Sequence record: NZ_CP093377.1
Direction: 5' to 3' (one strand)
Length of the DNA: 64,000 bases
DNA from: a plasmid
Shown: piece after piece, positions 1-15,748 of the stretch
Position numbering within the stretch: position 1 is the first letter of the stretch
How the letters are laid out: each line of letters begins with the position of its first letter
Made by a program: the position numbers and the translations under genes
The notes under the pieces: model-generated
Databases searched by the model: none
Seen by the model: only the letters and a program-made list of their open reading frames with translations
Told to the model about the DNA's origin: nothing

Positions 1-1
1 A

Positions 2-181
2 GACGAACGCACGCTGGTCGTTGTGGCACTGCAGGCGCTGCACCGTGAGAGACTGACCGCATCAAATGCCGTCTTTACGGTCTGTAGTCTGGCCGGAAAA
101 AAGCAGCCGCCGGAAGATATTTTTGGGCTGCGTGAAGTTCAGGATGCGCTGAGACGTATCGGTGCTGCACCTGCGCGTTAA
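2..181 (+). CDS. 3' end of unknown leading-region protein (59 aa, truncated by window start)
   Basis: Open frame 2 runs from position 2 to TAA at 179-181. No recognisable motif. Confidence 0.3.
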   Translation, partial: DERTLVVVALQALHRERLTASNAVFTVCSLAGKKQPPEDIFGLREVQDALRRIGAAPAR

Positions 182-374
182 ATCCGGCCCCGTACACTTC
201 AGAACTAAAAAACGGCAGGCTGATATCGTGTCCCTGCCGCCATACATTACCTCGTCCTTATCCTCTGCCTCCTCCTCCTGAATAAAAAGGAAGTCGTTTC
301 TCTCCGCTTTATTGCCGCCAGCCGGCGGCGTGTTCAACGCCGTGCCTTCACGCTAACCCGGCCGCTGCGGTCGC

Positions 375-520
375 AAGGGTTCACGTTGTCTCCGTCCTCA
401 CCCGTTCGCACCTTTCACGGTGCATTCAGCCCGTGAAAGGCTTGCGCTGCGGCTTGCGGCGTCGCCCCTGCGCCCTCCGCTCAGAGCCGGGTTTTTGTGG
501 CGGCACGGCGCAAGAGGGTG
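375..520 (+). promoter_or_regulatory. Structured repeat copy A1 (putative ssDNA promoter/ssi-like element) upstream of the methyltransferase
   Basis: About 130 bp nearly identical to 2105-2235. Contains a perfect 10-bp hairpin (cctttcacgg N10 ccgtgaaagg). Sits directly 5' of a leading-region gene. Confidence 0.4.
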
Positions 521-545
521 CCGCATATCAGAGAGGAGTGTGTCT

Positions 546-1238
546 ATGTCCCGTTTTATTCTGGGTGACTGCGTGCAGGTGATGTCCCGTTTTCCGGCGC
601 GTGCCGTCGATTTTATTCTTACCGATCCGCCGTATCTGGTTGGCTATAAGGACCGTACCGGGCGCACCCTGGCCGGGGACAACTCTGCCGAATGGCTCCA
701 GCCCGCCTGTCATGAAATGTACCGCGTGCTGAAAAATGACAGCCTCATGGTGAGTTTCTATGCCTGGAACCGCGCGGATCTGTTTCTGAATGCGTGGAAA
801 ACGGCCGGTTTCCGGGTGGTTGGCCATATCGTCTTTACCAAGAGCTACGCCTCAAAATCGACGTTCGTGGGTTACACGCACGAGAGCGCCTACCTGCTGG
901 CTAAGGGGAGGCCGCAAACCCCGGACCGTCCCATCCCGGACGTGATCCCCTGGAAATACACGGGCAACCGACACCACCCGACGGAGAAGCCGGTGCAGAG
1001 CCTGCGACCGCTGATTGAATCGCTCACGCGTCCCGGGGCCATTGTCCTTGACCCGTTCGCCGGCAGCGGCTCCACCTGCGTGGCCGCCGCCGAAGCCAGC
1101 CGCCGCTATATCGGGATCGAGATGCTTGAGGAGTACCACGCCGCCGGCGTCCGCCGTCTGGCACAGGTTGAACGGGCGAGAAGGATGCCGGCGGCCAATG
1201 ACGGCGCGTTTTACCCTGACTGGCCGGAGGCAGCATGA
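546..1238 (+). CDS. Orphan N6-adenine DNA methyltransferase (DPPY motif) of the leading region
   Basis: ORF 420..1238 with internal ATG at 546 preceded by GAGAGGAG. Motifs FILTDPPY, PTEKP and DPFAGSGST match ParB-associated/Dam-like N6 methyltransferases. Confidence 0.85.
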   Translation: MSRFILGDCVQVMSRFPARAVDFILTDPPYLVGYKDRTGRTLAGDNSAEWLQPACHEMYRVLKNDSLMVSFYAWNRADLFLNAWKTAGFRVVGHIVFTKSYASKSTFVGYTHESAYLLAKGRPQTPDRPIPDVIPWKYTGNRHHPTEKPVQSLRPLIESLTRPGAIVLDPFAGSGSTCVAAAEASRRYIGIEMLEEYHAAGVRRLAQVERARRMPAANDGAFYPDWPEAA

Positions 1239-1456
1239 ATTACCCGGGACTTGAACACCTGCGCGCGGACGTGGCCGCGCTCAGCAATGCCATGTGTGAC
1301 GTGCGGATGATGCTGAACCGCCTCGAATCACAGCACCGGCACGATGCGGCAACGCTTACCGAACGTATGGCTGCGCAGACTCTGCGCCGGATCAACACCC
1401 TGCTTCTGGAAGCCTACCGCGAAGCCCTGGTGCTGGACGAAACCTTTCAGGACTGA
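1235..1456 (+). CDS. Hypothetical protein, 73 aa, start overlaps the methyltransferase stop (ATGA)
   Basis: ORF track; translational-coupling overlap. Confidence 0.5.
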   Translation: MNYPGLEHLRADVAALSNAMCDVRMMLNRLESQHRHDAATLTERMAAQTLRRINTLLLEAYREALVLDETFQD

Positions 1457-1511
1457 CTGACCCTGCCGGGCTGATGCCCGGCCTGTAACCCCTTACAAGA
1501 GAGAAAAAACG

Positions 1512-1934
1512 ATGTACGGAACCCGCGAAGAACTTTGTGTACAGCTTGAAAACATGTTCACGTCTGACGAGCCCCTGGTCCTGCTGGTCTGGACGGAAGA
1601 GGGGATAAGCGTGGCCTGCCGTGAAGCCCAGCCAGAACCGGACGGGGCTGAAATCCGGGAGGTGATGAAGGCGCTCGGCGAAATGAAAATGACGCAATAC
1701 CGTCAGCAGGGGGTAAATAATCTGACCATTAGCGACCTTCTGACCCGTCAGCGCGAAGCGGCAAACCGTCAGGTGAGTGTTCCGGCGGTACTCCTGTCAC
1801 GTGTCCTGCGTAACTATGAATGCGAGCTGGAAAACCGGATCGGTATGGCCTGGGAAGCCGGGCGGCAGGAGCCGGAATCCGTCAGGGATGAGCTGAATAA
1901 CGTTCGCGCCCTACAGGAGACGCTGGCCGCCTGA
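1512..1934 (+). CDS. Hypothetical leading-region protein, 140 aa
   Basis: ORF track; the RBS-like string gagagaaaaaacg lies before the ATG. Confidence 0.5.
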   Translation: MYGTREELCVQLENMFTSDEPLVLLVWTEEGISVACREAQPEPDGAEIREVMKALGEMKMTQYRQQGVNNLTISDLLTRQREAANRQVSVPAVLLSRVLRNYECELENRIGMAWEAGRQEPESVRDELNNVRALQETLAA

Positions 1935-2104
1935 GAGAACGCCGGGGTAACGCCCCGGCAACCGGTGGCCATCCACTGCGAATAAGGATGTCAGTGCCTT
2001 CCGCTTTTATCCGCCGCCGCCCTCCGGGCTACGTCGGGACAATGAAACTCCCCTGAAGCTCCGTGCGGTGACGGCATGCGCCGTGACTTCACTGTAGCCC
2101 GGCC

Positions 2105-2235
2105 GCATCGGCCACAAGGGTTCGCTGACGCCTCCGTCCTCACCCGTTCGCACCCTTCACGGTGCATTCAGCCCGTGAAGGCTTTGCGCTGCGGCTTGCG
2201 GCGTCGCCCCTGTGTCCTCCGCTTTTCGCCGGTCT
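2105..2235 (+). promoter_or_regulatory. Structured repeat copy A2 (putative ssDNA promoter/ssi-like element) upstream of the antirestriction-like gene
   Basis: Same hairpin-containing sequence as 375-520. Confidence 0.4.
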
Positions 2236-2289
2236 GTCGTGTCGTCACGGCGATGCCGGAACCGAGAATATGTTAACCGTGGAGGATCT

Positions 2290-2718
2290 ATGAACCAGAC
2301 CGTGACCTGTGATGCTGTTCGTCTTGAGGGTGCGCAGCGCCTGACTTTCCTGCCTGATTTGTTTGGCGGCGATTTTATGACGTCCGAGGCATCCGTGTAC
2401 GCCTACGCCGGGCGTTACTGCCCTGAGTATCAGGGGGGATTCTGGCAGTTTTACCGGCTGCCGGAAGGCGGCGGATATATGGCACCTGACGTGGAGAGCC
2501 TGACCCTGTGCAATCGGGACAACTGGTTTGAGCAGACTGTCAGCGGGGAAGTGGCGGGGATCATCCTCACGGCACTGGTACTGAATCACCGGAGCTGGCA
2601 CCACAGTAACCATGACCATGAGGAGCTGTGCCGCCACTTCTGCCGCCGTTATGAGCAGCTTATGGCATTTGCTGATACCCATCCGGAAAGCGCCACCATC
2701 TGGCGTGCCCTTGACTGA
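2290..2718 (+). CDS. Antirestriction-family protein (ArdB/KlcA/YubI-like), 142 aa
   Basis: ATG at 2290 after GGAGGA. Aromatic-rich motifs (GGFWQFYRLPEGGGY, SGEVAGIILTALVL) resemble the Antirestrict family found in IncF leading regions. Confidence 0.55.
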   Translation: MNQTVTCDAVRLEGAQRLTFLPDLFGGDFMTSEASVYAYAGRYCPEYQGGFWQFYRLPEGGGYMAPDVESLTLCNRDNWFEQTVSGEVAGIILTALVLNHRSWHHSNHDHEELCRHFCRRYEQLMAFADTHPESATIWRALD

Positions 2719-2760
2719 CTGACCACGGGCGGCGATGCCGCCCGATTAAAGGATAAAAAC

Positions 2761-2958
2761 ATGCAACTGTCACCGGAAACCCGCAGCATCCTGCGCCAGT
2801 ATAAAACGCTCATCAACGAGCGACGTCGCGAATCAGGACTCAGCCCCGTAACAACAGCGAAAGTGCTGGATGAGATCTGCGAATCGGCTACCCGACAGTG
2901 TGCCGCCTATCTTTGCGGCCACTTCATTCTCCAGGGCGGCCAGGGGGATGGACAATAA
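2761..2958 (+). CDS. Hypothetical protein, 65 aa
   Basis: ORF track only. Confidence 0.35.
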   Translation: MQLSPETRSILRQYKTLINERRRESGLSPVTTAKVLDEICESATRQCAAYLCGHFILQGGQGDGQ

Positions 2959-3135
2959 ATAATCCGGGCGGGGCATAGGCGCCGCCTGTTCGCGCGCGAA
3001 AACCCTGTCATCCCTTCGGGCTGACGGGCGGCAAGGCCAGCGCCTGCGGCGCTGCCCCCTCCCGCCCTGATGTTAGCCCGGGGCAATGCAGATGAAAACC
3101 CTTGTGAGGGCAAATTGTCACGGATACGGTCCTGC

Positions 3136-3175
3136 GTGGCGTGGCGTGGCGTGGCGTGGCGTGGCGTGGCGTGGC
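3136..3175. repeat. Pentanucleotide microsatellite (GTGGC)x8
   Basis: Eight perfect tandem GTGGC units, counted directly. Confidence 0.9.
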
Positions 3176-3189
3176 GTTGTCGCCAGCTC

Positions 3190-3735
3190 TGAAACCCGAT
3201 CAGCAAATCCTCTGAAAACACCTGAATCCTTCTTCTGGCCCCCTTCGGCTCCCGGCCCGCGTGGCGGTCCGGTCGTCGAGCCCCACTCCGCCAGGTCGGC
3301 TGCTGACGCACCCGCCGGGCTCCGCCGAACCCGCAGGCGGTTTCGGGCTGACGCTAGGGTCTGATGGCTGAGGTCAACCCCCTGGCTTGCACCGGCCGGA
3401 GGCCGGGCCGCCCTGACCGCGCCGGCGGAGCCGTCGCTTTAAGGCCGCCACGCCGTTCCGACGTGTCGGGTGCGTGCATCCTGTTCTCCCGGTGAGGCCA
3501 TCCCCCGTGCGTCCTCACGCGGAGGGCTGCTTGTAGCACCGTCGTGTCGTCATCCGAAGGGTGAAATGCACGCCGCCAAAACTTTTTGCGTGCCGCAAAA
3601 ACTTTTGTCTGCGCCCTTCTTCTGCCGCCCCGCCGTTGCTCCTTTTGCCCTTTGCCGCGAGAGAACTCACCAGGGAGATGGCCAACCATCACCACAGGAG
3701 AAAACCAGGATGCACACACAAAACGTCAACGTCAA
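3190..3735 (+). repeat. Large direct repeat copy R1, ending in the RBS and first ~15 codons of the downstream gene
   Basis: About 500 bp near-identical to 8470-8976 and 11720-12214. GC-rich with internal partial palindromes (ccggccggaggccgg; ttttgcgtgccgcaaaa). Confidence 0.85.
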
Positions 3736-3982
3736 AACCGCCGCTCAGGAATCTTCCAGGAAGATGGGGGAAGAGCAAAACCCTGTTTCTGTCGCGCGTG
3801 AGTGGGTGGCTCAGGCCACTTCGCTGAAGGCGGGGGTCACCGTCACCCTGTCCGACGTTTCCCGATATGGCGACGTGCAGGTGGAGATCCGCACCAACGG
3901 AACGCTTAACTGGCGCGCCTGGTCGTTTGAACCGGATTTTCTTTTTGAACTGAAACGCAACCTGCAATACGTGCAGCTTTAA
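3710..3982 (+). CDS. Hypothetical protein, member 1 of the MHTQNVNVKTAA 5'-module family (90 aa)
   Basis: ATG at 3710 after GGAGAAAACCAGG. N-terminus MHTQNVNVKTAAQESS is shared with the ORFs at 8951 and 12188; the C-terminus is unique. Confidence 0.6.
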   Translation: MHTQNVNVKTAAQESSRKMGEEQNPVSVAREWVAQATSLKAGVTVTLSDVSRYGDVQVEIRTNGTLNWRAWSFEPDFLFELKRNLQYVQL

Positions 3983-4025
3983 CCGGAGGCCGGATGTCCG
4001 GCCTTAACCCAGAGAAGGAGGAAAC

Positions 4026-4391
4026 ATGCAGAACCTTAACACCCGTCCGGCGACCCGTAAGGTCGGGCAGAGCACCGAAATCGTGAAGCTGCTGCGCATT
4101 CAGGCCAGCGACACCCACGTGGTCGAGTTTGACAACGTGGACACCCGTTTTAACGACTGCAACAACTGGCAGGTGATGGCAGGGGACAAACGTGTCCTGT
4201 TCAGCAACCGCATGTATGAACGTTTTTCAGATGTGAAATCGGGGATTCTGGCAACGATCAACGTATGTGAAAACTGCGCCAGCGAAACGGATAAAGCGAT
4301 GCTGGAAGGGGCAAAAGTCATGATGCAGGTACTCGACGGCTATCCGTCCTTTGCAGCACTGGCTGCACACCCGAAACGTATTACCGGTTAA
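4026..4391 (+). CDS. Hypothetical leading-region protein, 121 aa
   Basis: ORF track; RBS GAGAAGGAGGAAAC before the ATG. Confidence 0.6.
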   Translation: MQNLNTRPATRKVGQSTEIVKLLRIQASDTHVVEFDNVDTRFNDCNNWQVMAGDKRVLFSNRMYERFSDVKSGILATINVCENCASETDKAMLEGAKVMMQVLDGYPSFAALAAHPKRITG

Positions 4392-4458
4392 CCGGGTGCC
4401 GTGACCGGATCGCACTCCGGCCACGGCGGACCATCACTTAAACACAGGAGTAAAAATC

Positions 4459-6471
4459 ATGGCCACCACCAATACTACGGCAAAAAAACCTGCGAAATCC
4501 ACCTCTGCGAAAAAGACAGCGGAGAAAATCGCGCAGACTACCGAGCAGAAGCTCGTTCAGCTGCTCGCTGATACGCCCGTGCAAATCTTCCCGTACTCCC
4601 GCCTGTCACGCACTGACTTAAACACGCGCATTATTCCGCATACCGATCAGGAAGTGGAAGAGATGGCAGACAGCATTCAGGCAATGGGCATCCTGCAAAA
4701 CCTGATCGGTGCAGAACTGCCGGACGGTACGATCGGCATTGTCGGCGGGGAAGGTCGCCGCAGGGGCACAGGCATTCTGGTGATGCGCGGTGTGCTCGAT
4801 GCAGACACGCCGTTTGTTCCGGTGAAAGTCCTGCCCGTGGAGATGGCGGTGGCGGCCTCGATGATCGAGAACGGTCGACGTAAACACATGCATCCCGCCG
4901 AGCAGATTATCGGTTTTCGTACCCTTCAGCAGGAAGGTAAAACGGCTTCTCAGATCGGCGCACTGATGGGCTATCACCCGCGCCACGTTCAGCGCTGCCT
5001 GAAACTGGCGAATCTTGCCCCCTCCCTGCTGGATGCGCTGGCGCGGGATGAAATCTCCCTTGAACAGTGTGAAGTCCTGACCCTTGCTGATACCCATGAG
5101 CGTCAGGAGCAGGTCTGGAAAGAGGCTGTTGTACAGTGGCGCGATCCTGCCGTACAGACCCTGCGCAAAATGGTGACCGACGACAAGATGGCCATCAGTC
5201 ACCCGATGTTTGAATTTGTGGGCGAGGAAGCCTATACCGCCGCTGGCGGTACGCTGACCGCCGACCTGTTCAGCGACAGGGACAGCACCTTTGCCGATGC
5301 GGCGCTGGTGAAATCCCTGCTGGCTGGCAAGCTCACCGTGCTTGCCGCCCGCCTTCAGCAGGAGCAGGGCTGGGGCTGGTCAGAATTCCGTATGACGGAA
5401 CTCAGCCACAGCGGCGAGGACAGGGAACAGTACCGCTTTGCCATGCCGGAACCTGTTCTGACCGAAGATGAGCTGCAACGTATTAACGAGCTGGAAGATG
5501 CAATTGAAGGATGTATGGCGTATGACGACGAATACGAGCTTCAGCAGCAGATTGACGATATTCACTGCGAGGCGACTTATCGCGAAGCCACGCCGGAATT
5601 TCGCGCCGCGCACGGAATCTGGGTGTCATGGGATGGTGACAGTTTTCAGGTTCAGCCTGGTATCCGCAGGCTGACCGACGAAGACCGGGCAGCAGAAGAA
5701 CAGGCGCGTCAGGAGCGTGAAAAGAACGTAATCAGACACACCACGCCTGACATTCCCGCTGACGCCTATCCGGCAACGCTGGTTAAGGCCATGTCTGCGG
5801 AGCGCACTCTTGCCGTTCAGGCGGAACTGGCGGGTCGCCCCGATGTATCGGTGGCGCTCCTGACGTGGACGCTGTGTCTTGCGCTCTTTGATCGCACCTA
5901 CGGTAAACGCAGCGAACCGCTGAAAGCCTATGTGACCTCGAATCAGTATCACCTTGCATCACTGGCGCCTTCCGGTGAAACAGGGAAGGCGCTGACGGCG
6001 CTCAGGGCACAGAAAAAAGCGCTTCAGGCAACGCTGCCCGAAAACTGGCATCTCGATTTCACCTGGCTGCTGTCATGGTCAGCAGAGCAGGTGAACACCC
6101 TGCTGGGATTCTGTGCCGCGCACGGTATCAACGGTATTCAGGAACGTATGTATAACCATACGCAGAAAAGCGAACTGGACGGGCTGGAAGCGGCGCTGGA
6201 CTTTGACCTGCGCAAGTGGTGGCAACCGGGGGCTGAGAGCTACTTCGGCAAGCTCACGATTTCCCAGATTGGCAAAGCCTATGAAGAAGCCGGACTGAGT
6301 GCCCGTGCAGGTGAAGTTGTGAAGCTCAGGCGCCGCGATGCGGCAAAGGCCGCCGAACAGGATCTGAATGCTCAGGGCTGGCTGCCTGACTGGATGGTGC
6401 GCACAGCGCCAGCCGCTGAGGCTGAAGAAGCCACTGAATCCGACGCTGATATCACTGACCACGCTGCTTAA
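4459..6471 (+). CDS. ParB-like nuclease-domain protein (YubM-like), 670 aa
   Basis: Large leading-region ORF with a lysine-rich N-terminus and ParB/Srx-like region. It lies immediately upstream of psiB, as in F-like plasmids. Confidence 0.7.
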   Translation: MATTNTTAKKPAKSTSAKKTAEKIAQTTEQKLVQLLADTPVQIFPYSRLSRTDLNTRIIPHTDQEVEEMADSIQAMGILQNLIGAELPDGTIGIVGGEGRRRGTGILVMRGVLDADTPFVPVKVLPVEMAVAASMIENGRRKHMHPAEQIIGFRTLQQEGKTASQIGALMGYHPRHVQRCLKLANLAPSLLDALARDEISLEQCEVLTLADTHERQEQVWKEAVVQWRDPAVQTLRKMVTDDKMAISHPMFEFVGEEAYTAAGGTLTADLFSDRDSTFADAALVKSLLAGKLTVLAARLQQEQGWGWSEFRMTELSHSGEDREQYRFAMPEPVLTEDELQRINELEDAIEGCMAYDDEYELQQQIDDIHCEATYREATPEFRAAHGIWVSWDGDSFQVQPGIRRLTDEDRAAEEQARQEREKNVIRHTTPDIPADAYPATLVKAMSAERTLAVQAELAGRPDVSVALLTWTLCLALFDRTYGKRSEPLKAYVTSNQYHLASLAPSGETGKALTALRAQKKALQATLPENWHLDFTWLLSWSAEQVNTLLGFCAAHGINGIQERMYNHTQKSELDGLEAALDFDLRKWWQPGAESYFGKLTISQIGKAYEEAGLSARAGEVVKLRRRDAAKAAEQDLNAQGWLPDWMVRTAPAAEAEEATESDADITDHAA

Positions 6472-6508
6472 TACCAGAGGCCGCCGCCTTCGGGCGGCGG
6501 GAACAGAC

Positions 6509-6943
6509 ATGACCATGCAATATGACCTGAACCGAATCAACACCCTGACCGCCACAGACCTGGAGTTTATCCGTCAGCAGGGCGAGGACGCGCGCCGCGC
6601 CCTCAGCGATGCCGTGACCGGCCTCCTGTCGGCACCTGAAGGATGGCGCGTCTGCGCCGAGTTCCGCAGCGAGTTCGGCGATTTCTTCCCCGTCCAGTGC
6701 CGCTTCAGCGCGGACGGCAGTGATGACTGGCATCTGTGCGTGTGCAGCCCCGGCGAAGTCTCGCCTTACTGGCTTCTGGTGCTGCTCTCCTCCGGCGGTG
6801 AAGTGGTGCGTACCCTTTACCAGAGCGACACGCTACAGCCTGACCGGATAAACCAGCTGATCGCGCAGCTGGCAGGTATGCGCCGCTTTAACTGCACTGC
6901 CAGCACCGTGGCGAACCTGATGAGCGGGGAGGTGACAGCATGA
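6509..6943 (+). CDS. psiB: Plasmid SOS-inhibition protein PsiB
   Basis: Motifs FGDFFPVQCRF, HLCVCSPGEVS and WLLVLLSSGGE match F PsiB (FGGFFPVQVRF, LALCSPGDVS, VLVLVNAGGE). Confidence 0.9.
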   Translation: MTMQYDLNRINTLTATDLEFIRQQGEDARRALSDAVTGLLSAPEGWRVCAEFRSEFGDFFPVQCRFSADGSDDWHLCVCSPGEVSPYWLLVLLSSGGEVVRTLYQSDTLQPDRINQLIAQLAGMRRFNCTASTVANLMSGEVTA

Positions 6944-7686
6944 TCCCGTCCTCACACGCGCTCGTTTCCCTGAAACCCGCCCGTCAGGCTGCAATACAGG
7001 CTATCAGCCATGTTGAGTCTGCCCGCGAACGCGGCGCACGACTGCCCGCCATGCCGTATGTGCGTACCTTTCTGCGCTTGCTCACGGGCAGCGGTCGCCT
7101 CAACGCCACGGTGGCCAGTAAAATACCTGGCCTGCACTGGGTGCCAGATAACCGTCATTCGAACCTGAAACAGGTCGAGGAGGCGCTTAACACGATGATC
7201 GCCACCAGTGGCGAAGCCTGCCCGCTGCCGCTCACGACTGACGTACAGGCCGAACTGTTCCCGGAAGTCATGCACACCCGCACGGGGCGACGGCTGCACA
7301 GATCCAGCATTAAGACCACGCGTCAGCTTCGCCGCCAGTCCCGTCAGTACGAACAGCGCTGGAAACTGCGCCAGAACCTGCTGGAGCAGGCGAAAATCGA
7401 CCTGAATTTTCAGTCACCGGAAACCGTCTGCACCTGGTACACCCGGTGGAGCGACGAGTTTGACGCGGCAGAGCTTGCCGGACCGTTCTGGCGCTGGCAG
7501 TCGCGGTTCGCGTCGCTGAAGGAACTTGACTGGCTTCGCATCAGCGGTGAGCCGCTGTATGCAGTGATGTACGAAATCCCGTTTATTGTCCGGGAAACAC
7601 CTGAGCATGTTCGTGTCGCTGAACGCTGGCAGGTGCCGAATAAGTTGCAAAATCAGCAGGGGGAAGGGGCGCATCAGAAGTCATGA
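6940..7686 (+). CDS. psiA: Plasmid SOS-inhibition protein PsiA
   Basis: Start overlaps the psiB stop. Length 248 aa; motifs LPLTTDVQAELFPEV and GPFWRW resemble F PsiA. Confidence 0.8.
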   Translation: MIPSSHALVSLKPARQAAIQAISHVESARERGARLPAMPYVRTFLRLLTGSGRLNATVASKIPGLHWVPDNRHSNLKQVEEALNTMIATSGEACPLPLTTDVQAELFPEVMHTRTGRRLHRSSIKTTRQLRRQSRQYEQRWKLRQNLLEQAKIDLNFQSPETVCTWYTRWSDEFDAAELAGPFWRWQSRFASLKELDWLRISGEPLYAVMYEIPFIVRETPEHVRVAERWQVPNKLQNQQGEGAHQKS

Positions 7687-7834
7687 GGATATATACAGTT
7701 TTTGGACTGTTATTCCTGGGCAGATGATCGACAACGGGATATAATGGCGATGGCGCTTGAGGCTTTTTGCCTCATGATGTGAAGGTGGTTTGTTGTCGTG
7801 TTGTGTGGCAGAAAGCAGAAAGCCCCGTAGTTAA

Positions 7835-7900
7835 TTTTCATTAACCCACGAGGCCCCCTGTATGTCTCAACAACAACAGTATGGCCTCTTACCGTGCTTA
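7835..7900 (-). ncRNA. sok: Putative Sok-type antisense RNA of the hok/sok post-segregational killing locus
   Basis: Expected position antisense to the mok start, upstream of hok. Boundaries were not determined. Confidence 0.3.
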
Positions 7901-8077
7901 ATGCAAGGAGGAGTAAACCATGAAACTGCCGCGAAGTACCGTTATCTGGTGCGTACTGATAGTGTGTCTCACACTGCTGATATTCACTTACCTGACGCGA
8001 AAATCGCTTTGCGAAATTCGCCTGAGGGACGGACAACGGGAGGTCGCTGCAATTCTGGCTTACGAATCCAACGGTAA
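7862..8077 (+). CDS. mok: Mok (modulation of killing) reading frame overlapping hok
   Basis: A 71-aa ORF overlapping hok in another frame, the typical hok/mok arrangement. Confidence 0.55.
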
Positions 8078-8081
8078 GTAG
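7920..8081 (+). CDS. hok: Hok-family membrane toxin (53 aa)
   Basis: Translation [53 protein letters not shown] is near-identical to Hok/FlmA. RBS AAGGAGGAG precedes the ATG. Confidence 0.9.
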
Positions 8082-8085
8082 CAAC

Positions 8086-8112
8086 CTGGAGGCGGGGGAA
8101 ACCCCGCCTTTT
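8086..8112 (+). terminator. Rho-independent terminator after hok
   Basis: GGAGGCGGGGG aaa CCCCGCCTTTT stem followed by a T-run. Confidence 0.7.
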
Positions 8113-8189
8113 CAGGGCTGAGTTGCTCTGACATACCTGAAGCGCCTTTATGAAGGGGTTGCCGGTTCGCCGTCAGCCCCTTTTTCCTT

Positions 8190-8976
8190 CCCGACGCGAC
8201 CGCACGCCTGAACCTCCGGGAAGGGCTGTTCCCCTGCGGGGAACGGGGGAAGGGGGACGCGCCTCCGGCGCTGCCCCTCTGCTCCCTCTGCCTGAGCCTC
8301 CCTCCTGCCTGTCCTGCCTGATTTTGTTGAATTCGAAACTCCGTGAGCTACCTGCTCATACCTGGCTTCGGCCTGGTGTGCCCGATGTTCTTTAGCCTGT
8401 GCGTCATATCCGGCGTCCTGCCGGTTAACTTTCGCATCTGCAGCTGTATGGCCATAACCCGAAAACAGGGCAGGGCGATGGCCCCCTTCGGCTCCCGGCC
8501 AGCGCTGCTGTCCGGTCGTCAAGCCCCACTCCGCCAGGGCGGCTGCTGCGCACCCGCCAGGCTCCGCCGAACCCCTCCGGGTTTCGGGCTGACGCTAGGG
8601 TCTGATGGCTGAGGTCAACCCCCTGGCTTGCACCGGCCGGAGGCCGGGCCGCCCTGACCGCGCCGGCGGAGCCGTCGCTTTAAGGCCGCCACGCCGTTCC
8701 GACGTGTCGGGTGTGTGCATCCTGTTCTCCCGGTGAGGCCATCCCCCGTGCGTCCTCACGCGGAGGGCTGCTTGTAGCACCGTCGTGTCGTCATCCGAAG
8801 GGTGAAATGCACTCCGCCAAAACTTTTTGCGTGCCGCAAAAACTTTTGTCTGCGCCCTTCTCCTGCCGCCCCGCCGTTGCTCCTTTTGCCCTTTGCCGCG
8901 AGAGAACTCACCAGGGAGATGGACAACCATCACCACAGGAGAAAACCAGGATGCACACACAAAACGTCAACGTCAA
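8190..8976 (+). repeat. Large direct repeat copy R2
   Basis: 8470-8976 is near-identical to R1 and R3. The extra 5' part (8190-8470) is shared with R3 only. Confidence 0.85.
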
Positions 8977-9265
8977 AACCGCCGCTCCCGAATCTTCCAG
9001 GAAGATAGAGGGAAAAACCGTGTCGTACACGATCCTCGTCGCTGAGCAGAAAAAAAACTCAGCGGAGGAACCTGATGTTCTGGAGTTCAGCAGCCTGGCT
9101 GAGCTGAAGAAACTGCGCAGACGCTGCCCCGAAACGATGCGCTGCACCTATTTCTACGCCCTCAGCAGCGGCGTCGATAAACAGTTCCGCCATATCCATG
9201 TGGCTGAAGCTGACCACTTCAAACAGTTTGTGCGCCTGATCGCGCGCGCAGGTATCGACATTTAA
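8951..9265 (+). CDS. Hypothetical protein, member 2 of the MHTQNVNVKTAA family (104 aa)
   Basis: ATG at 8951 inside repeat R2. The N-terminal 13 aa are shared; the C-terminus is different. Confidence 0.6.
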   Translation: MHTQNVNVKTAAPESSRKIEGKTVSYTILVAEQKKNSAEEPDVLEFSSLAELKKLRRRCPETMRCTYFYALSSGVDKQFRHIHVAEADHFKQFVRLIARAGIDI

Positions 9266-9326
9266 ATCCGGTTTCACCCCGTGCGGCAGCCGCCGCCCGG
9301 AACTTAATCAGACAGGAGCCAGAAGC

Positions 9327-9533
9327 TTGAGCGTTAACACCCCGACCGCAAAGGCCCGTTACGAAAATGGGCATATGTCAGACCCTGAGCCTAAAACAGC
9401 CTCTCTCATTGCGATTTATGGCAATGAGGTGAGCTATGCATGGAACGTTCTGGAGGATTTGAAAGCTGCAGGTGCTTCTTATACCCGCAGAAACATTATC
9501 GCCGATATGTTCCGCCGTCTGGGTGTTCAGTAA
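9327..9533 (+). CDS. Hypothetical protein (68 aa, TTG start), M(S/N)VNTPTA family
   Basis: ORF track. The upstream ~50 bp and first 8 codons duplicate those of the ORF at 9611. Confidence 0.35.
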   Translation: MSVNTPTAKARYENGHMSDPEPKTASLIAIYGNEVSYAWNVLEDLKAAGASYTRRNIIADMFRRLGVQ

Positions 9534-9610
9534 CCCGGACTTACCTCTGACCCGATGCGGTGCTGTATAGCAGGTACCGCTCGGAACTGAATCAAACAGG
9601 AGCCTGAAAG

Positions 9611-10072
9611 ATGAACGTTAACACCCCGACCGCTGCACCAATGGCCTTTTTCGTTCCGTCTCATAACGCCGTTTATGACCGCGCAACCCGGCTGGAAGGG
9701 CAGTGGGTGACTCAGCGTGAAGCGATAACGCTGGAAGCCCTGCGCCGTTTCTATCCGGATGCGGAGCTGATCCCCGCGACTCTGGTTCAGGAAAAGCAGA
9801 ATGAAGGCTATCGCCGTCCCTGGGTGGAAATCACCGAGGCCCGGTACATCGACCAGCTGGAAACGCTGCCGCCAGTGGACTGGTGCAGAGGGTATGGCGG
9901 GGAGTCGTTCAAATCGATGGAGTTTACGGGCGGGGATGTGACCGCAATTTTCGTCCGGTACGGCGCGCGTTTCTTTGAGTGCCATGACCTGCACACCCGC
10001 CATCACCGGGAGCTGATTGGCGACGTGATCACCCGTTTCTGTCTCGATGCGCCGCTGAATTCCGCGCATTAA
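9611..10072 (+). CDS. Hypothetical leading-region protein, 153 aa
   Basis: ORF track; ATG after CAGGAGCC. Confidence 0.55.
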   Translation: MNVNTPTAAPMAFFVPSHNAVYDRATRLEGQWVTQREAITLEALRRFYPDAELIPATLVQEKQNEGYRRPWVEITEARYIDQLETLPPVDWCRGYGGESFKSMEFTGGDVTAIFVRYGARFFECHDLHTRHHRELIGDVITRFCLDAPLNSAH

Positions 10073-10159
10073 AAAAGCAGGGTTGCCCCTGCTTTCTCAA
10101 CGCCGGGTAGCCGCTGTAACGGTGAACCGGCAATCACAACCAAAGTAAGGAGATTGATC

Positions 10160-10306
10160 GTGAAATTTGACCCGCAAACTGTAAAACAGGCTGAGGCATT
10201 TGTAAATGCCCTCCGCGCCGGAAAACGTGCACACATGCCCGCGCTGCGTTTCGGCCAGTGGCAGCAATTTATGACCACCGTTTACGCTGGTCTGGGGCTG
10301 GCATAA
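10160..10306 (+). CDS. Small hypothetical protein (48 aa, GTG start)
   Basis: AAGGAGA lies 7 nt before GTG at 10160; own translation. Confidence 0.3.
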   Translation: MKFDPQTVKQAEAFVNALRAGKRAHMPALRFGQWQQFMTTVYAGLGLA

Positions 10307-10346
10307 CAGGAGGCGGCCGCCTGCGGGCGGCCGGTAAGGAGAAACC

Positions 10347-11124
10347 ATGTCACAACTGAGTTTTGAATCCCTGTTCCTGGCAGACCAGACCGAACCGCAG
10401 CCGCGGGTTTCCGCTCCTGTCCGGGTATTGTCGCCAGCTGAGGCGCGTAAGCAGTTCGCCAGTGTATTCCGCCAGACTGCGAGATATATGCACCGTTCCG
10501 AAGTGTTCCTTGCTGCCAGTGGGCTGGATATGGCGCGCATACACACGCCAGAAAACATCGAAAACAGCCGACGCATCTGCGAACGGTATCAGCCAGACGA
10601 TTTAGACGCCATGAGGCATCTGTTCTGCCTGTTGGTGGAGGGGCTGGCGGGTGAAATGCATGATTTCCTCGGCGCTCTGTATATGGAGCATGAGCTGGGC
10701 GCGGACGAAATGGGGCAGTATTTCTCGCCGTCCTCCATCTCCCGCCTGCTGGCCGGGCTACTCATGCCCGGCGCTCAGGAGACGATAAAGCGTGAGGGGG
10801 GGGATGACGCTCGATGAACCCGCCTGTGGCAGCGCCGGTATGGTCATTGCCTTTGCTTACTGGATGGCTGAAGCGGGACTGAATCCATCTGAACAGCTGT
10901 ATGCGACCTGCACTGATATCGATCCGATGGTGGCAGATATGGCCTTTATCCAGCTGTCACTGCTGGGTATCCCCGCGAAAGTCGTGACCGGTAATACGCT
11001 GACTCTGAAAGCAAATCGCGTGCGTTATACCCCCGTGTATTACTTCAATGACTGGCAGGGACGTCTGGAGTTCCGCAGCCGTTTCGAAGCGATGAAAAAC
11101 TTTCTGGCCACCGTGGCCGCCTGA
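10347..11124 (+). pseudogene. HsdM-like (N6_Mtase N-terminal motifs) gene lacking NPPF, split into two frames at a G8 homopolymer
   Basis: ORF 10347..10817 contains GQYFSPSSISRLL. The +1-frame ORF 10792..11124 contains DEPACGSAGMV and the MADMAFIQLSLLG motif. The frames meet at the G8 tract 10796-10803; removing one G fuses them into a ~258-aa protein. Confidence 0.55.
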
Positions 11125-11165
11125 CTGACAGAGCGGCAGGGCAGACCTGCCGCAGGGAGATAAAA

Positions 11166-11501
11166 ATGACAAGCAACACACTGAACGCTGTTCCGGCGAC
11201 CGTGCTGGAGACCATGGCAGAACGCCTCAACGGCCAGCCTGAACCGCTAAAAATCCGCAACAACGACGATCACGCTGCACTGGCTGCAGATGTGCTCTGG
11301 CAGTTTGCCCGAAAAACCGGGCTGAACAGGGAAAGCGAGAGCGTGCAAACTGTCATCACTGATTTTCTGGCCAATCTTCTGCACCTGTGCGAACAGTGCG
11401 ATCCTGACGGGGCAGGTATCGACGGATTTAATGCCCTGCTGAATATGGCCATGATGCATTATGAGCAGGAAAACGGAGGCGACAGCGAAGAACCAGTTTG
11501 A
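11166..11501 (+). CDS. Hypothetical protein, 111 aa
   Basis: ORF track. Confidence 0.5.
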   Translation: MTSNTLNAVPATVLETMAERLNGQPEPLKIRNNDDHAALAADVLWQFARKTGLNRESESVQTVITDFLANLLHLCEQCDPDGAGIDGFNALLNMAMMHYEQENGGDSEEPV

Positions 11502-11544
11502 TCGGGAGTCTGTGCCCTGGTGGATGCCATCAGGGCAACCGCAA

Positions 11545-12214
11545 AAAAACGCTTCCCCTTAGGGGAAACGGGGAGGGCGAAAGCGCCTCCGGCGCTCCTG
11601 CCATTCCCCGCTACCGTACTTCTCTCCTTACCTGCCTTCAGAACCGGCGTCCTGCTGGTTAACTTTCTCAGCTGCAGCTTTGTTATGGCCATAACCCGAA
11701 AGCAGGGCAGGGCGATGGCCCCCTTCGGCTCCCGGCCCGCGTGGCGGTCCGGTCGTCAAGCCCCACTCCGCCAGGGCGGTTGCTGACGCACCCGCCGGGC
11801 TCCGCCGAACCCCTTCGGGTTTCGGGCTGACGCTAGGGTCTGATGGCTGAGGTCAACCCCCGGGCTTGCACCGGCCGGAGGCCGGGCCGCCCTGACCGCG
11901 CCGGCGGAGCCGTCGCTTTAAGGCCGCCACGCCGTTCCGACGTGTCGGGTGCGTGCATCCTGTTCACCCGGTGAGGCCATCCCCCGTGCGTCCTCACGCG
12001 GAGGGCTGGTCGTAGCACCGTCGTGTCGTCATCCGAAGGGTGAAATGCACGCCGCCAAAACTTTTTGCGTGCCGCAAAAACTTTTGGCGGCGCCCTTCTC
12101 CTGCCGCCCCGCCGTCGCTCCTTTGCCCTTTGCCGCGAGAGAACTCACCAGGGAGATGGCCAACCATCACCACAGGAGAAAACCAGGATGCACACACGAA
12201 ACGTCAACGTCAAA
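11545..12214 (+). repeat. Large direct repeat copy R3
   Basis: Near-identical to R1 and R2, including the embedded start of the downstream gene. Confidence 0.85.
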
Positions 12215-12481
12215 ACCGCCGCTCAAGAATCTACCGGAAGATGTGATTCAAACCTCACCACGTCCCAGTTCACGGATCTGTTTTGCTGGGTCCTGGCAGC
12301 ATCGGAAGGGGAGCCACAACCGGCAATTTTTACGCCGCCAGAGAATGCCACTGAGCTGACGTTAATTAATGACGAATGCCCGGATTATATCTCTGTCTGG
12401 GTTGTGGATGGTCGCCCGGTGGCAGCTGCAATGCCGCTGGATAATTTTCACCGCGTTATTCCTTCATCATTTGCTAAATAA
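12188..12481 (+). CDS. Hypothetical protein, member 3 of the MHTQNVNVKTAA family (97 aa)
   Basis: ATG at 12188; N-terminus MHTRNVNVKTAAQEST. Confidence 0.6.
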   Translation: MHTRNVNVKTAAQESTGRCDSNLTTSQFTDLFCWVLAASEGEPQPAIFTPPENATELTLINDECPDYISVWVVDGRPVAAAMPLDNFHRVIPSSFAK

Positions 12482-12497
12482 TCAGGAGTAAATAAAA

Positions 12498-13319
12498 ATG
12501 GTCAGTTTCGCAAGCCGCTATCGTATGCCTTCCTCGATCCGTAAAGACCGTCCGCTGACGAATGAGGAATTACAGCTCATCGTTCCGAGCGCGTTCTCAT
12601 CGGATAAACACGATTCACGCTCTGAACGTTATACATATATCCCGACCATAAACATTCTTGACCGTTTACGTGATGAAGGGTTTCAGCCGTATTATGCAAC
12701 GCAGTCACGCACACGTGACCAGGATAAACGCGAATTTACAAAACATATGCTTCGCCTGCGTCGTCATGACCAGATTAACGGGAAAGAAGTACCGGAAATT
12801 ATTCTGCTGAATAGCCATGATGGTTCAAGCAGCTATAAAATGATCCCCGGTATGTTCCGTCAGGTTTGCAGTAATGGTCTGGTTGCATGGAAGGATTTTG
12901 GTGAAATCCGCGTACCCCACAAAGGGGATATTGTCGGGCAGGTTATTGAAGGCGCTTACACGGTGCTGAAAACATTTGACGCGGTTGATGAAAATATTGA
13001 CCTCATGAAAAGCATTCAGCTCACTTTGCCTGAGCAGCGCCTTTTTGGTGCGACCGCACTGGAACTTAAGTACGATGGAAAACCAGCGCCGATTACGCCG
13101 GAGCAAATTATTAACCCCCGCCGGGTACTCGACAGAGGCCAGGATTTATGGACCACGTTTAACGTGGTACAGGAAAATGTGATCCGTGGGGGGATTCGTG
13201 GCAGAACGCAAAAAGGGAAGGTGACCAGAACGCGGGAAGTCACCGGAATTGATGGTGACATCAAATTAAATCAGGTGCTCTGGAAAATGGCGGAGGAGTT
13301 TGCAAAACTTAAGGCCTGA
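12498..13319 (+). CDS. DUF932-like plasmid/phage-related protein, 273 aa
   Basis: Size and position (leading region next to oriT) are typical of DUF932 proteins. RBS CAGGAGTAAATAAAA precedes the ATG. Confidence 0.6.
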   Translation: MVSFASRYRMPSSIRKDRPLTNEELQLIVPSAFSSDKHDSRSERYTYIPTINILDRLRDEGFQPYYATQSRTRDQDKREFTKHMLRLRRHDQINGKEVPEIILLNSHDGSSSYKMIPGMFRQVCSNGLVAWKDFGEIRVPHKGDIVGQVIEGAYTVLKTFDAVDENIDLMKSIQLTLPEQRLFGATALELKYDGKPAPITPEQIINPRRVLDRGQDLWTTFNVVQENVIRGGIRGRTQKGKVTRTREVTGIDGDIKLNQVLWKMAEEFAKLKA

Positions 13320-13347
13320 AAATTAAGCCGCTCAACAGAGCGGCTTT

Positions 13348-13887
13348 TTACTGTCCGCTATGTAACGAGGCCGTTTCCGCAATTTGAATCGCCTTCTCCT
13401 TTCCCGCAGCTGGCGCCAGACGTTCAGAAAGCAACTTTTTTCTGGCGAGCAATACACGATATATATTTTTGATATCCTGAGCATACGCCTTGCGCTGCGC
13501 AATGAGCTTTTTGCTCGGCCCCGTATTATACATCCCTACGCTGTCCCAGTTTTTTCCGTATGACCTGAAGTTGTGCGCCAGTACCCATGCACCCGTATAA
13601 ACGCAGATGCATGGATCATTCAACAGGCGCTCTCGGGTAATATTGAAGTTTTTAAGTTTACCGTAATGAGAACTGTTCACCTGCATCCCGCAGACATCTT
13701 CTGTTCCATTTCTGTTAGATCCATTTATCGCACCCGGCTTAAGTCTGCTCTCTTTAATTGAAATTGACATAAGCAGCAGCGGATCAATTTGATAATCTTT
13801 CCCGGCCTGATCAAAGCACATCTGGGGAGCTGCGCCAGCAGACATGGATAGGGTCAGCAATGCCGCAGGGAGTATCGATATTTTCAT
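13348..13887 (-). CDS. Lytic transglycosylase (gene X / orf169-like, SLT domain) with signal peptide
   Basis: Signal peptide, then an ES catalytic-Glu motif (SISIKESRL) and NGTEDVCGMQVNS. Adjacent to oriT as in F. Confidence 0.8.
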   Translation of the reverse strand: MKISILPAALLTLSMSAGAAPQMCFDQAGKDYQIDPLLLMSISIKESRLKPGAINGSNRNGTEDVCGMQVNSSHYGKLKNFNITRERLLNDPCICVYTGAWVLAHNFRSYGKNWDSVGMYNTGPSKKLIAQRKAYAQDIKNIYRVLLARKKLLSERLAPAAGKEKAIQIAETASLHSGQ

Positions 13888-14039
13888 TGTTTGGCCTTTT
13901 AACGAAATACACGGGCTCTGGAGAGTCGCCTTAAAAAATACCCCGGCGGATCGTCGTAATCAAGTTAATTCACTACAAACGCGCGTGAGCGCTCTCCTGA
14001 AGGGATTTAACACCCGTCCGAAATAAACATGTCAGAGCA

Positions 14040-14130
14040 GTAGACGGTATTAACACGCCGCTCTTTACTAACCCTTTAAAACATCACACCCCACGCAAGA
14101 CTTCGTCTTGCAGATTTTTTCTTTAAATTC
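14040..14130 (-). other. oriT nic region (F-like), nick on the minus strand
   Basis: The minus strand reads TTGCGTGGGGTGT|GATG, which matches the F nic consensus TTTGCGTGGGGTGT|GGTG. An adjacent inverted repeat gcaagac/gtcttgc lies at 14095-14112. Confidence 0.6.
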
Positions 14131-14189
14131 AGTGGCATGATGTGTGTTTTATTTCGTAATTTTTGAGTATGCGCGCTTAAGGTGTGTGG

Positions 14190-14465
14190 ATTGACACACA
14201 TTGCAGTGCTTAATCAGGCACTGCAATGTGTGCTAATACAGCACTCTGAAGTGTGGGGATTGTGTGTATTCAATTAATAGAGTAACTTAAAAGTAGATGG
14301 TGCCTGAACCACACACATCATAGTGCCTAATGCACACACATCATAGTGCCTGATTAGCACACATCTTTAGGGATGGATTAGATATAAAATCAGTTGGTTA
14401 CCATAACACAGCACCACTGACAGTTGTTAAAGCTCGCCATTGCAGTGCCGCATCAGGCACTGCAT
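14190..14465. promoter_or_regulatory. TraM operator (sbm-like) palindromes and traM promoter region
   Basis: Repeated perfect palindromes cattgcagtgc..gcactgcaatg and gcactatgatgtgtg units lie upstream of traM. Confidence 0.55.
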
Positions 14466-14485
14466 TAGAATATCGAGAAATTATT

Positions 14486-14872
14486 ATGCCAAGAAAGAAC
14501 ATTTACTTTAAAGACAAAATTGACCGCGAAATACATGATATTCTTGAAATAGAACTACAGAAAGGGGCCACCACCTCTGAGATGAACTACTCATCAATAG
14601 TCAACGAATTAGTACGCCTTGGGCTAATGGTTTACAAATCGAAAGAAGAAGGAAGCTCATTTGACCTGGATGGCTTCAGGCGCGACCTTATAAAGAAAGT
14701 CTCCGGGTCGCGAGAAGGTATTATGATTCTGACTGCCCTTGTTTCTGACATCTTCGTTACACTCAAAGGTCCCGACTCTGGCGTGAAACTGGAAGAGCTC
14801 ATAAACACCAATATCAGTGCAATTAACGATGCGGAAGATAAAGCCGAAAAAGACCACTTCCTGGCAGGGTAA
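14486..14872 (+). CDS. traM: Relaxosome accessory protein TraM
   Basis: 128 aa, immediately after oriT. The helical C-terminus and overall pattern resemble F TraM. Confidence 0.85.
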   Translation: MPRKNIYFKDKIDREIHDILEIELQKGATTSEMNYSSIVNELVRLGLMVYKSKEEGSSFDLDGFRRDLIKKVSGSREGIMILTALVSDIFVTLKGPDSGVKLEELINTNISAINDAEDKAEKDHFLAG

Positions 14873-14910
14873 ACTAGCTTCTTTGGCCGGAACACTCCGG
14901 CCAGAATCGA

Positions 14911-15597: not shown

Positions 15598-15748
15598 GCC
15601 TACTCACTTACCCATTCAGATAAATCTGAATAATTCTAAAAAATGTGACATGGGTCACAGTTTTTTTTTTTTGAGGTTATGGGACAATTGCGCCCGCGTA
15701 AACAAGCACTTACGCGAATCACTTTTGTTTACCTCGGAGAAAACAAAC

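Follow-up and report, generated by a model that had tools for sequence, protein, structure and literature searches.

Two hairpin repeats upstream of methylase and anti-restriction genes in an F-like plasmid leading region are probable single-strand DNA promoters

Two copies of a hairpin-forming repeat, A (positions 338–510) and B (2079–2252), lie directly upstream of anti-restriction-type genes in the window, the whole 64-kb stretch of plasmid DNA analyzed here (64,000 nucleotides of NZ_CP093377.1). They are members of a recently described family of single-strand DNA (ssDNA) promoters, so that the finding is real and of a kind already known. Promoters of class 2 and class 3 (ssp2 and ssp3) of this family are active only while the incoming plasmid is single-stranded (Wen et al., 2025, PMC12672017), and A and B probably work as promoters of the same type. 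This role, which an earlier note on this DNA had proposed, is supported by compensatory changes in the stems together with a folding bias toward the transferred strand, by −35 and −10 bases carried on one arm of the hairpin, and by homology to elements tested in pESBL and F.

Hairpin Elements and Their Genomic Context

Copies A and B, at 173 nt and 67% G+C, are arranged as direct repeats 1.74 kb apart and share 83.3% identity over 174 nt (E = 9e-48 in a BLAST search of the window with copy A). Identity rises to 87% between 390–510 and 2132–2252, and only the central ∼80 nt fits the term "near-identical," which the earlier note had applied to the whole of 375–520 and 2105–2235. Inverted arms of 25 nt bound each copy (338–362 and 486–510 in A, 2079–2103 and 2228–2252 in B); the repeat unit is therefore an imperfect hairpin of ∼173 nt. 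A hairpin-containing repeat had been described correctly, but its outer arms had been overlooked and its size put at ∼130 bp. Likewise, the perfect 10-bp apical stem ascribed to both copies holds for A (cctttcacgg at 411–420, ccgtgaaagg at 431–440), whereas the stem in B is only 9 bp long (2154–2162/2173–2181). The apical hairpins (411–440 and 2154–2181, minus strand) have the same loop, GGCTGAATGC on the minus strand, and the motif gcgctgcggcttgcggcgtcgcccctg follows the stem in both copies, from 444 in A and from 2186 in B, as the note had it.

The window holds two copies in total: BLAST of copy A returned one other match, and a family profile (described below) found exactly A and B. Additional candidates from a loose pattern search, at 19736, 43442, 50935, and 54657, were unconfirmed by the profile search and are regarded as chance matches. 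The window also carries three class-1-like copies, which constitute a separate "first family."

Both downstream genes lie on the plus strand. Copy A directly precedes a gene for an M.EcoGIX-like DNA methylase (546–1238; N6_N4 DNA methylase, PF01555, E = 3e-38) whose product is 69% identical to the methylase of the pESBL leading region, M.EcoGIX (BLASTP, E = 9e-125). Copy B precedes an ArdB/KlcA-type anti-restriction gene (2290–2718; Antirestriction family, PF03230, E = 5e-26), the product of which shares 49% identity with YfgB of F (BLASTP, E = 5e-45). The base of the hairpin is 35 nt from the ATG in A and 37 nt in B, within the ∼30–60 bp originally estimated, and a ribosome-binding site for the methylase gene, GAGAGGAG, can be read from the sequence at 531–538 (plus strand). 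The window represents an F-like leading region. Based on the positions of an SLT-domain gene (13351–13887, minus strand), TraM (14486), and the TraI relaxase (43941–49352), the origin of transfer was placed at about 13.9–14.5 kb, and genes upstream of it point toward it, as in the layout of F. With the origin in that position, the minus strand is both the transferred strand and the template for the two genes, and A and B are thus carried on the transferred strand, 35–37 nt upstream of plus-strand genes.

Fold, Covariation, and Strand Bias

The stable single-strand structure that the earlier note had expected of the transferred strand is borne out, and it contains promoter-like boxes. Folded as ssDNA, the minus strand scored z = −4.1 for A and −3.9 for B, and none of 200 shuffles folded as well; the fold energies of the two elements are −55.8 and −52.1 kcal/mol, respectively. 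In copy A, for which the minus strand is the functional strand, the base of the template arm (486–510) pairs with that of the non-template arm (338–362), the two being 80% complementary over 25 nt.

The same structure is maintained across a large family. A profile built from 34 relatives, A and B included, found 52 elements representing 41 distinct copies; its matches to A (336–512, E = 8e-33) and B (2077–2252, E = 6e-35) come from a profile that itself contains both. In the 34-sequence alignment, the 33 consensus pairs were paired in 97.3% of cases, vs. 35–43% when partners were slid, and 18 of the 33 showed compensatory changes, vs. 2–6 after sliding. Covariation scored 0.352 (vs. about 0.05), a value that none of 500 shuffles reached. 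Two blocks of invariant columns in this alignment correspond in copy A to AAGCCGCAGCGC (444–455, minus strand) and GAACGGGTGAG (397–407, minus strand). Restricting the alignment to the 16 sequences of the A/B subtype revealed compensatory changes in 26 of 52 pairs, those of the apical stem among them; the apical stem of the subtype covaries while its loop is invariant in 15 of the 16 members.

The alignments further indicate which strand folds. Read on the transferred strand, they contain ∼47 G·T wobble cells vs. ∼5 A·C cells, and the transferred strand was more stable than its complement in all 41 distinct elements, by a mean of 6.9 kcal/mol. All 52 profile matches are oriented alike, each occupying the strand that serves as template for its downstream gene, and the distance from hairpin base to start codon is 32–41 nt in nearly all of them, with looser spacing in three elements of one Serratia locus and in one partial copy. 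The genes downstream of the elements code for KlcA/ArdB, ArdA, methylase, DUF1281, and ParB-like proteins. When a 219-nt query spanning copy A was searched, 3,878 plasmid records matched, Klebsiella and Enterobacter being their main sources. In 17 of the 41 elements the transferred strand contains the hexamer AAGCGG, which may be linked to PriA sites but does not count as evidence of a primosome site.

Promoter Boxes in the Outer Stem

The promoter boxes are located in the outer stem, outside the 10-bp apical hairpin. On the minus strand of copy A, a −35-like hexamer, TTGCGA (371–376), matches the consensus at 4/6 positions, and a −10-like hexamer, TAGCGT (350–355, within the base of the non-template arm), matches at 3/6; in copy B the corresponding hexamers are TTGTGG (2112–2117; 3/6) and TACAGT (2091–2096; 4/6), the latter partly unpaired in the fold. 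Both boxes are rebuilt in the stem as weak hexamers with a short spacer. Across the family, the TTG of the −35 box is present on the non-template arm in 40 of 41 distinct copies, and a −10 box of the form TAnnnT has T1, A2, and T6 in 41 of 41 while positions 3–5 vary. Because the search pattern itself required TA...T, independent support for the invariance of the −10 box comes from the alignment columns. The spacer between TTG and TAnnnT is 15 nt in 33 of the 41 copies, shorter than the usual 16–18. In the commonest pairing state, positions 2–4 of the −10 box are open in an internal loop, as in copy A (structure ")...))"), and the key adenine is therefore already unpaired. That only TTG and T1, A2, and T6 appear to be fixed across the 41 copies, and that the −10 adenine is usually predicted to be unpaired in advance, goes a little beyond the published work considered here.

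The TTG–TAnnnT motif was present on the duplex sense strand of none of the 41 elements. A conventional double-stranded promoter, which the earlier note had itself set against its proposal, was also not found: a scan of 150–2400 returned no sigma-70-like site on either strand.

Proposed Mechanism

On entry, each ∼173-nt element would form a long, imperfectly paired hairpin whose lower stem mimics a duplex promoter, with the 3′ arm of the folded strand serving as non-template and presenting TTG–15 nt–TAnnnT. Host sigma-70 RNA polymerase could then bind and initiate in this lower stem, near 505 and near 2247. These positions are estimates from geometry (503–507 in A and 2245–2249 in B, plus strand), obtained in A by counting ∼7 nt beyond the −10 box and projecting that point onto the opposite side of the stem. 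Transcription would leave the hairpin along its 5′ arm and enter the methylase operon (from 546) and the ArdB/KlcA operon (from 2290), giving leaders of ∼40 nt that include the ribosome-binding sites. Once the complementary strand is made, the hairpin would be lost, and since the sense strand of the duplex lacks promoter boxes, we propose that expression stops after conversion. For A and B we infer polymerase binding, start positions, and shut-off; early induction and mapped starts are known for homologues only.

If A/B-type elements act in this way, they would tie the expression of genes for anti-restriction and self-methylation to the first minutes that a resistance plasmid spends in a new cell, and therefore bear on how plasmids pass host defenses. 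The family is very widespread, and standard annotation leaves its elements unmarked. Compensatory changes combined with strand bias form a purely computational signature that could be used to annotate such promoters.

Alternative Explanations

The best-surviving alternative, which we nevertheless consider improbable, is that the hairpins act mainly on DNA synthesis, either priming the complementary strand (ssi) or stalling its synthesis as a roadblock, with promoter activity secondary. At ssp2, the F homologue, synthesis of the complementary strand stalls until UvrD removes the hairpin (bioRxiv 10.64898/2026.01.09.698686), Frpo transcripts are able to prime DNA synthesis, and neither the invariant blocks nor the invariant apical loop are explained by promoter function. 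A roadblock or primosome site, however, has no need for TTG and TAnnnT on one arm or for a fixed 32–41 nt to the start codon. In addition, the folds of the A and B elements alone are close to that of ssp3 (−50.7 kcal/mol), which is reported to be without roadblock activity, and well short of that of ssp2 (−71.6 kcal/mol), a comparison suggestive only that A and B resemble ssp3 rather than ssp2 as regards stalling.

It is far less probable that the structure works as RNA, as a leader or terminator hairpin in the sense transcript or as an antisense regulatory RNA from the minus strand. Compensatory changes alone do not distinguish RNA from DNA, and an antisense RNA would show the same G·U pattern as the minus strand, but in all 41 elements the sense strand gives the less stable fold, and the conserved key bases of the −35 and −10 boxes are unexplained by antisense RNA. 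The starts of homologues, moreover, are reported to match the predicted single-strand promoters (PMC12672017). An intrinsic terminator was rejected: the stem is not followed by a T-run, a T5 in copy A falls inside the stem, and the three terminator-like sites detected in 150–2400 all lie away from A and B. A search of Rfam over 1–16000 gave nothing at either copy, the sole match being sok at 7751–7922. In view of the bias toward one strand and the conservation of promoter bases, we set the terminator, leader-RNA, and antisense-RNA readings aside.

Least credible of all is passive intergenic DNA (a remnant left by duplication or recombination, a mobile repeat of small size, or an operator beside an unrecognised duplex promoter), for which the direct-repeat arrangement of A and B, a 62-nt element fragment at one locus, and a klcA without an upstream element at another might speak, but which is at odds with structure-preserving substitutions across many plasmids, with strict orientation and spacing relative to genes, and with the lack of any detected duplex promoter in 150–2400.

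Relation to Known Single-Strand Promoters

A and B belong to a family that takes in class 2 (ssp2) and class 3 (ssp3) of pESBL and F as well as the candidates "Frpo* 1" and "Frpo* 3." The class 3 prototype is F (L001) 4662–4822, equivalent to pESBL (L004) 3278–3438, and the class 2 prototype is F (L001) 8487–8714, equivalent to the klcA and ardA elements of pESBL. Direct BLAST matches of A and B to these prototypes are weak (E = 1e-4 to 1e-5), and identity to them is only 60–65%; intermediates from Klebsiella and Raoultella join them strongly, and in one alignment of A, B, and the prototypes, common invariant blocks appear in the same order. For the pESBL and F prototypes, Wen et al. (2025, PMC12672017) reported start sites mapped by 5′ RACE as well as early induction in recipient cells.

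The earlier note had likened A and B to Frpo, and the likeness holds for the logic rather than the family. Like A and B, the class 1 (ssp1) elements Frpo/ssiD of F and ssi1–3 of ColIb-P9 form a transferred-strand hairpin in which −35 and −10 boxes are re-created ahead of early leading-region genes. Yet BLAST and profile searches gave no significant sequence match between A/B and F Frpo/ssiD or ColIb ssi1–3. We rejected class 1 membership on the lack of homology and on size and composition (173 nt and 67% G+C vs. ∼330 nt with A+T-rich stretches). The comparison with ssiE, a further relative proposed in the note, likewise failed (best E = 9.6 against F ssiE); ssiE and primosome assembly sites share with A and B that they are structured single-stranded plasmid DNA.

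The ssp2 elements (the pESBL klcA and ardA and F yfgB promoters) precede an ArdB/KlcA gene in the same position and orientation, and share with A and B the outer stem GCCGTGCC / GGCACGGC, a non-template arm bearing TTG–15 nt–TAnnnT, and the invariant blocks. They are longer (∼220 vs. ∼170 nt), with a longer and different central part, a longer and nearly unbroken lower stem (21 bp), and a more stable fold (−71.6 vs. −52 to −56 kcal/mol), and share only ∼60–62% identity with A and B. Roadblock activity has been demonstrated for ssp2, and F transfer into restricting hosts drops when ssp2 is deleted (bioRxiv 10.64898/2026.01.09.698686).

Closer to A and B in length (157–165 nt) and stability is ssp3, which agrees with them in outer stem, promoter boxes, and invariant blocks and also drives a methylase homologue, being located before the DUF1281–hypothetical–M.EcoGIX operon of pESBL and F. 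It lacks the apical hairpin bearing the CTGAATG loop, is 61–65% identical to A and B, and precedes the DUF1281 gene, whereas copy A directly precedes the methylase gene. Further relatives are "Frpo* 1" and "Frpo* 3," computational, low-certainty candidates from an insect-gut metagenome island (OFEI01000013.1; Samuel et al., 2024, PMC11541004, Supplementary file 4). They belong to the A/B subtype, having the same length, apical loop, and boxes and 72–76% identity over about 150–210 nt (E = 1e-10 to 1e-35), but sit on a different element.

Class 2 and class 3 are described in the literature as unrelated. At the level of sequence they align as one family with common invariant blocks, which goes slightly beyond the published work considered here, and A/B stands roughly as far from one as from the other. 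It is possible, though on balance unlikely, that A and B are a distinct structural subtype of one superfamily with classes 2 and 3, in which the lower stem would be the promoter and an exchangeable upper part (the invariant CTGAATG loop on its covarying stem, AAGCCGCAGCGC, and GAACGGGTGAG) might have a second, sequence-specific function in host-factor docking, primer or primosome loading, or the tuning of resistance to duplex conversion.

Paired Hairpins and Their Genomic Context

The hairpin-containing repeat described in the earlier note is real and occurs as two copies, although the unit is larger than the ~130 bp given there. Copy A (338-510), upstream of a methylase gene, and copy B (2079-2252), upstream of an ArdB/KlcA-type anti-restriction gene, share 83.3% identity over 174 nt (BLAST, E = 9e-48), and a family profile search of the whole 64 kb revealed no third copy. 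Both copies are bounded by previously overlooked 25-nt inverted arms (338-362/486-510 in A and 2079-2103/2228-2252 in B), and with these terminal arms each is a single ~173-nt imperfect hairpin. The perfect 10-bp stem noted earlier holds for copy A (411-420/431-440), whereas copy B has only 9 bp (2154-2162/2173-2181); the motif beginning gcgctgcggctt was found 3′ of the apical stem in both, as described. Folding the minus strand as ssDNA, the check proposed at the time, gave z-scores of −4.1 (A) and −3.9 (B), equaled by none of 200 shuffles. The hairpin bases lie 35 and 37 nt upstream of the ATG codons at 546 and 2290, respectively.

The gene following copy A encodes a PF01555 DNA methylase with 69% identity to M.EcoGIX, the pESBL leading-region methylase, and that following copy B a PF03230 anti-restriction protein with 49% identity to F YfgB. 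Overall, the window matches the leading region of Enterobacter and Klebsiella F-type plasmids (top match E. hormaechei p6234F, 95% identity), and its first 4.2 kb has matches in 2,890 plasmid records. Given that an SLT-domain gene (13351-13887, minus strand), TraM (14486) and the TraI relaxase (43941-49352) are laid out as in F, we place oriT at ~13.9-14.5 kb. By the established pattern of F, the minus strand is the one transferred and serves as template for the methylase and anti-restriction genes. Also as in F, the leading region contains a hok/sok module, identified by a sok antitoxin RNA at 7751-7922 (Rfam RF01794, 98 bits). A 64-nt direct repeat (9286-9349 and 9570-9633, 83% identity) spans the RBS and start of two small adjacent reading frames, which may be paralogous small leading-region genes.

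Putative Promoter Signals and Selection on the Transferred Strand

Promoter boxes were examined across 41 distinct elements and in the alignments, with the folded strand's 3′ arm in the non-template role. A −35 TTG was present in 40 of the 41, mostly within CCCTTGCA, and was followed by a −10 hexamer TAnnnT in which T1, A2 and T6 were constant and positions 3-5 free to vary; TTG and these three constant positions are the bases most critical for sigma-70 recognition. Of the 41 elements, 33 had a 15-nt spacer. On the minus strand, the boxes are TTGCGA (376..371) and TAGCGT (355..350) in copy A, and TTGTGG (2117..2112) and TACAGT (2096..2091) in copy B. In the commonest predicted pairing state, −10 positions 2-4 fall inside an internal loop, such that the −10 adenine would already be unpaired. 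The opposite stem arm does not mirror the boxes, the TTG/TAnnnT motif was absent from the duplex sense strand (0/41 elements), and a promoter scan of 150-2400 found no duplex promoter. Based on hairpin geometry, transcription would start near 505 (A) and 2247 (B), giving leaders of ~40 nt that include the RBS. The conserved boxes on the 3′ arm, the transferred-strand fold and published homologues support the earlier ssDNA-promoter reading, and we consider it likely that A and B act by this mechanism.

The hairpin structure is under selection, and on the transferred strand. Across the 33 consensus pairs of a 34-sequence alignment, 97.3% of cells were paired, vs. 35-43% with partners slid by 1-3 columns; compensatory changes affected 18 pairs (2-6 in slid controls), and the covariation score of 0.352 (~0.05 in slid controls) was reached by none of 500 shuffles. 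Among 16 sequences of the A/B form (the ~173-nt version with a CTGAATG apical loop), compensatory changes occurred in 26 of 52 pairs, including apical-stem pairs, and the loop was unchanged in 15. The transferred strand had ~47 G.T wobble cells vs. ~5 A.C cells, and this strand was more stable than its complement in 41/41 distinct elements (mean gap 6.9 kcal/mol); it follows that the minus strand, rather than a sense RNA, is what folds.

As an extra function, the hairpins could possibly prime or stall DNA synthesis. A precedent exists in ssp2, the class 2 ssDNA promoter of pESBL and F, which stalls complementary-strand synthesis until UvrD acts and is important for transfer to restricting hosts; class 3 (ssp3) is of similar strength without the stall (bioRxiv 10.64898/2026.01.09.698686). 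However, such a role leaves the conserved boxes and fixed start-codon distance unexplained, and the fold energies of A and B (−55.8 and −52.1 kcal/mol) are nearer to that of ssp3 (−50.7) than ssp2 (−71.6). Action at the RNA level is disfavored by the transferred-strand fold bias, by the lack of a terminator at A or B in a scan of 150-2400, and by the lack of an Rfam match at either copy. The structure-preserving substitutions rule out a passive repeat.

Facing the −35/−10 spacer, the transferred strand carries AAGCGG, which we take to be the hexamer common to PriA (factor Y) effector sites, in 17 of 41 distinct elements; its presence may reflect mere inheritance. On the minus strand, blocks GAACGGGTGAG and AAGCCGCAGCGC (397-407 and 444-455 in A; 2138-2148 and 2186-2197 in B) are invariant in the A/B form and in classes 2 and 3, a conservation that exceeds pairing needs, and occupy the position expected of an UP element, yet are G-rich.

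Distribution of the Hairpin Family

F holds two distant relatives, one upstream of its methylase-containing operon (L001 4662-4822) and one upstream of its ArdB-like gene (L001 8487-8714). The former corresponds to pESBL-EA11 L004 3278-3438 (99% identity), and the latter to the pESBL-EA11 elements upstream of klcA (96%) and ardA (95%). Searching all the DNA collected, including 35 KlcA-relative loci and three more plasmid loci, with a profile of 34 aligned elements yielded 52 copies, all on the template strand of the next gene (KlcA/ArdB, ArdA, methylase, DUF1281 or ParB-like). The hairpin base lay 32-41 nt from the start codon in nearly all, apart from three elements at a single Serratia locus and a partial copy. 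A 219-nt query including copy A matched 3,878 plasmid records.

The Pantoea agglomerans plasmid NZ_CP143409 (L040), whose transfer system is IncI-type, has three elements (628-805, 2498-2673 and 3825-4052; two short, one long) preceding DUF1281, methylase and anti-restriction genes; from this example, the promoter seems to be re-used as a cassette. At a Citrobacter meridianamericanus locus (L036), a klcA-like gene has the stem base alone upstream (about 1440-1500) and a full element downstream, ahead of another gene (2057-2291), and thus appears to have lost its upstream hairpin. Two Klebsiella loci (L016/L017) contain an additional 62-nt element fragment at 985-1046.

Relation to Known ssDNA Promoters

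A separate family of three ~475-nt direct repeats (3236-3710, 8479-8951 and 11716-12188; 96% mutual identity over 475 nt) is probably a divergent type of class 1, the class of F Frpo/ssiD and ColIb-P9 ssi1-3. Its first copy has a very strong minus-strand ssDNA fold (z = −9.3) and is closely preceded by ~nine GCGTG pentanucleotide copies (gcgtggcgtggcgtgg...) at 3134-3176. The family shares 75% identity over 396 nt with the low-certainty Salmonella candidate "Frpo* 5" (Samuel et al., Nature 2024) and no more than a ~32-nt segment with F ssiD/Frpo.

For A and B, the likeness to Frpo or ssiE suggested earlier did not extend to sequence: BLAST and profile searches detected no similarity to Frpo/ssiD, ssiE or ColIb ssi1-3. 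The kind of element is nevertheless already known, and A and B are further members. Wen et al. (NAR 2025; PMC12672017) described six early operons in pESBL, with class 2 promoters for klcA and ardA and class 3 for the M.EcoGIX operon, used 5′ RACE to locate the transcription starts, and mentioned F homologues. The names ssp2 and ssp3 come from a 2026 preprint, in which ssp2 drives the F ArdB-like gene (bioRxiv 10.64898/2026.01.09.698686); ssp2 was also discovered independently (PMC13478746). Among the candidates of Samuel et al. (Supplementary file 4; PMC11541004), "Frpo' 4" is class 2, and "Frpo* 1" and "Frpo* 3" are of the A/B subtype (72-76% identity), flagged there as low-certainty; we found no published experiment on this subtype in the literature.

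A and B share 60-65% identity with both class 2 and class 3 prototypes, and 71-79% with bridging Klebsiella, Raoultella and Buttiauxella forms. Aligned, all have in identical order the outer stem, the blocks AAGCCGCAGC and GA(A/C)CGGGTGA, and the −35/−10 boxes. We interpret classes 2 and 3 and the A/B form as one family with a constant lower stem and an upper part of variable length, which yields elements of 157, ~170 and ~220 nt. According to Wen et al. (PMC12672017), class 3 is unlike every other class, which makes the one-family reading a minor extension of their description.
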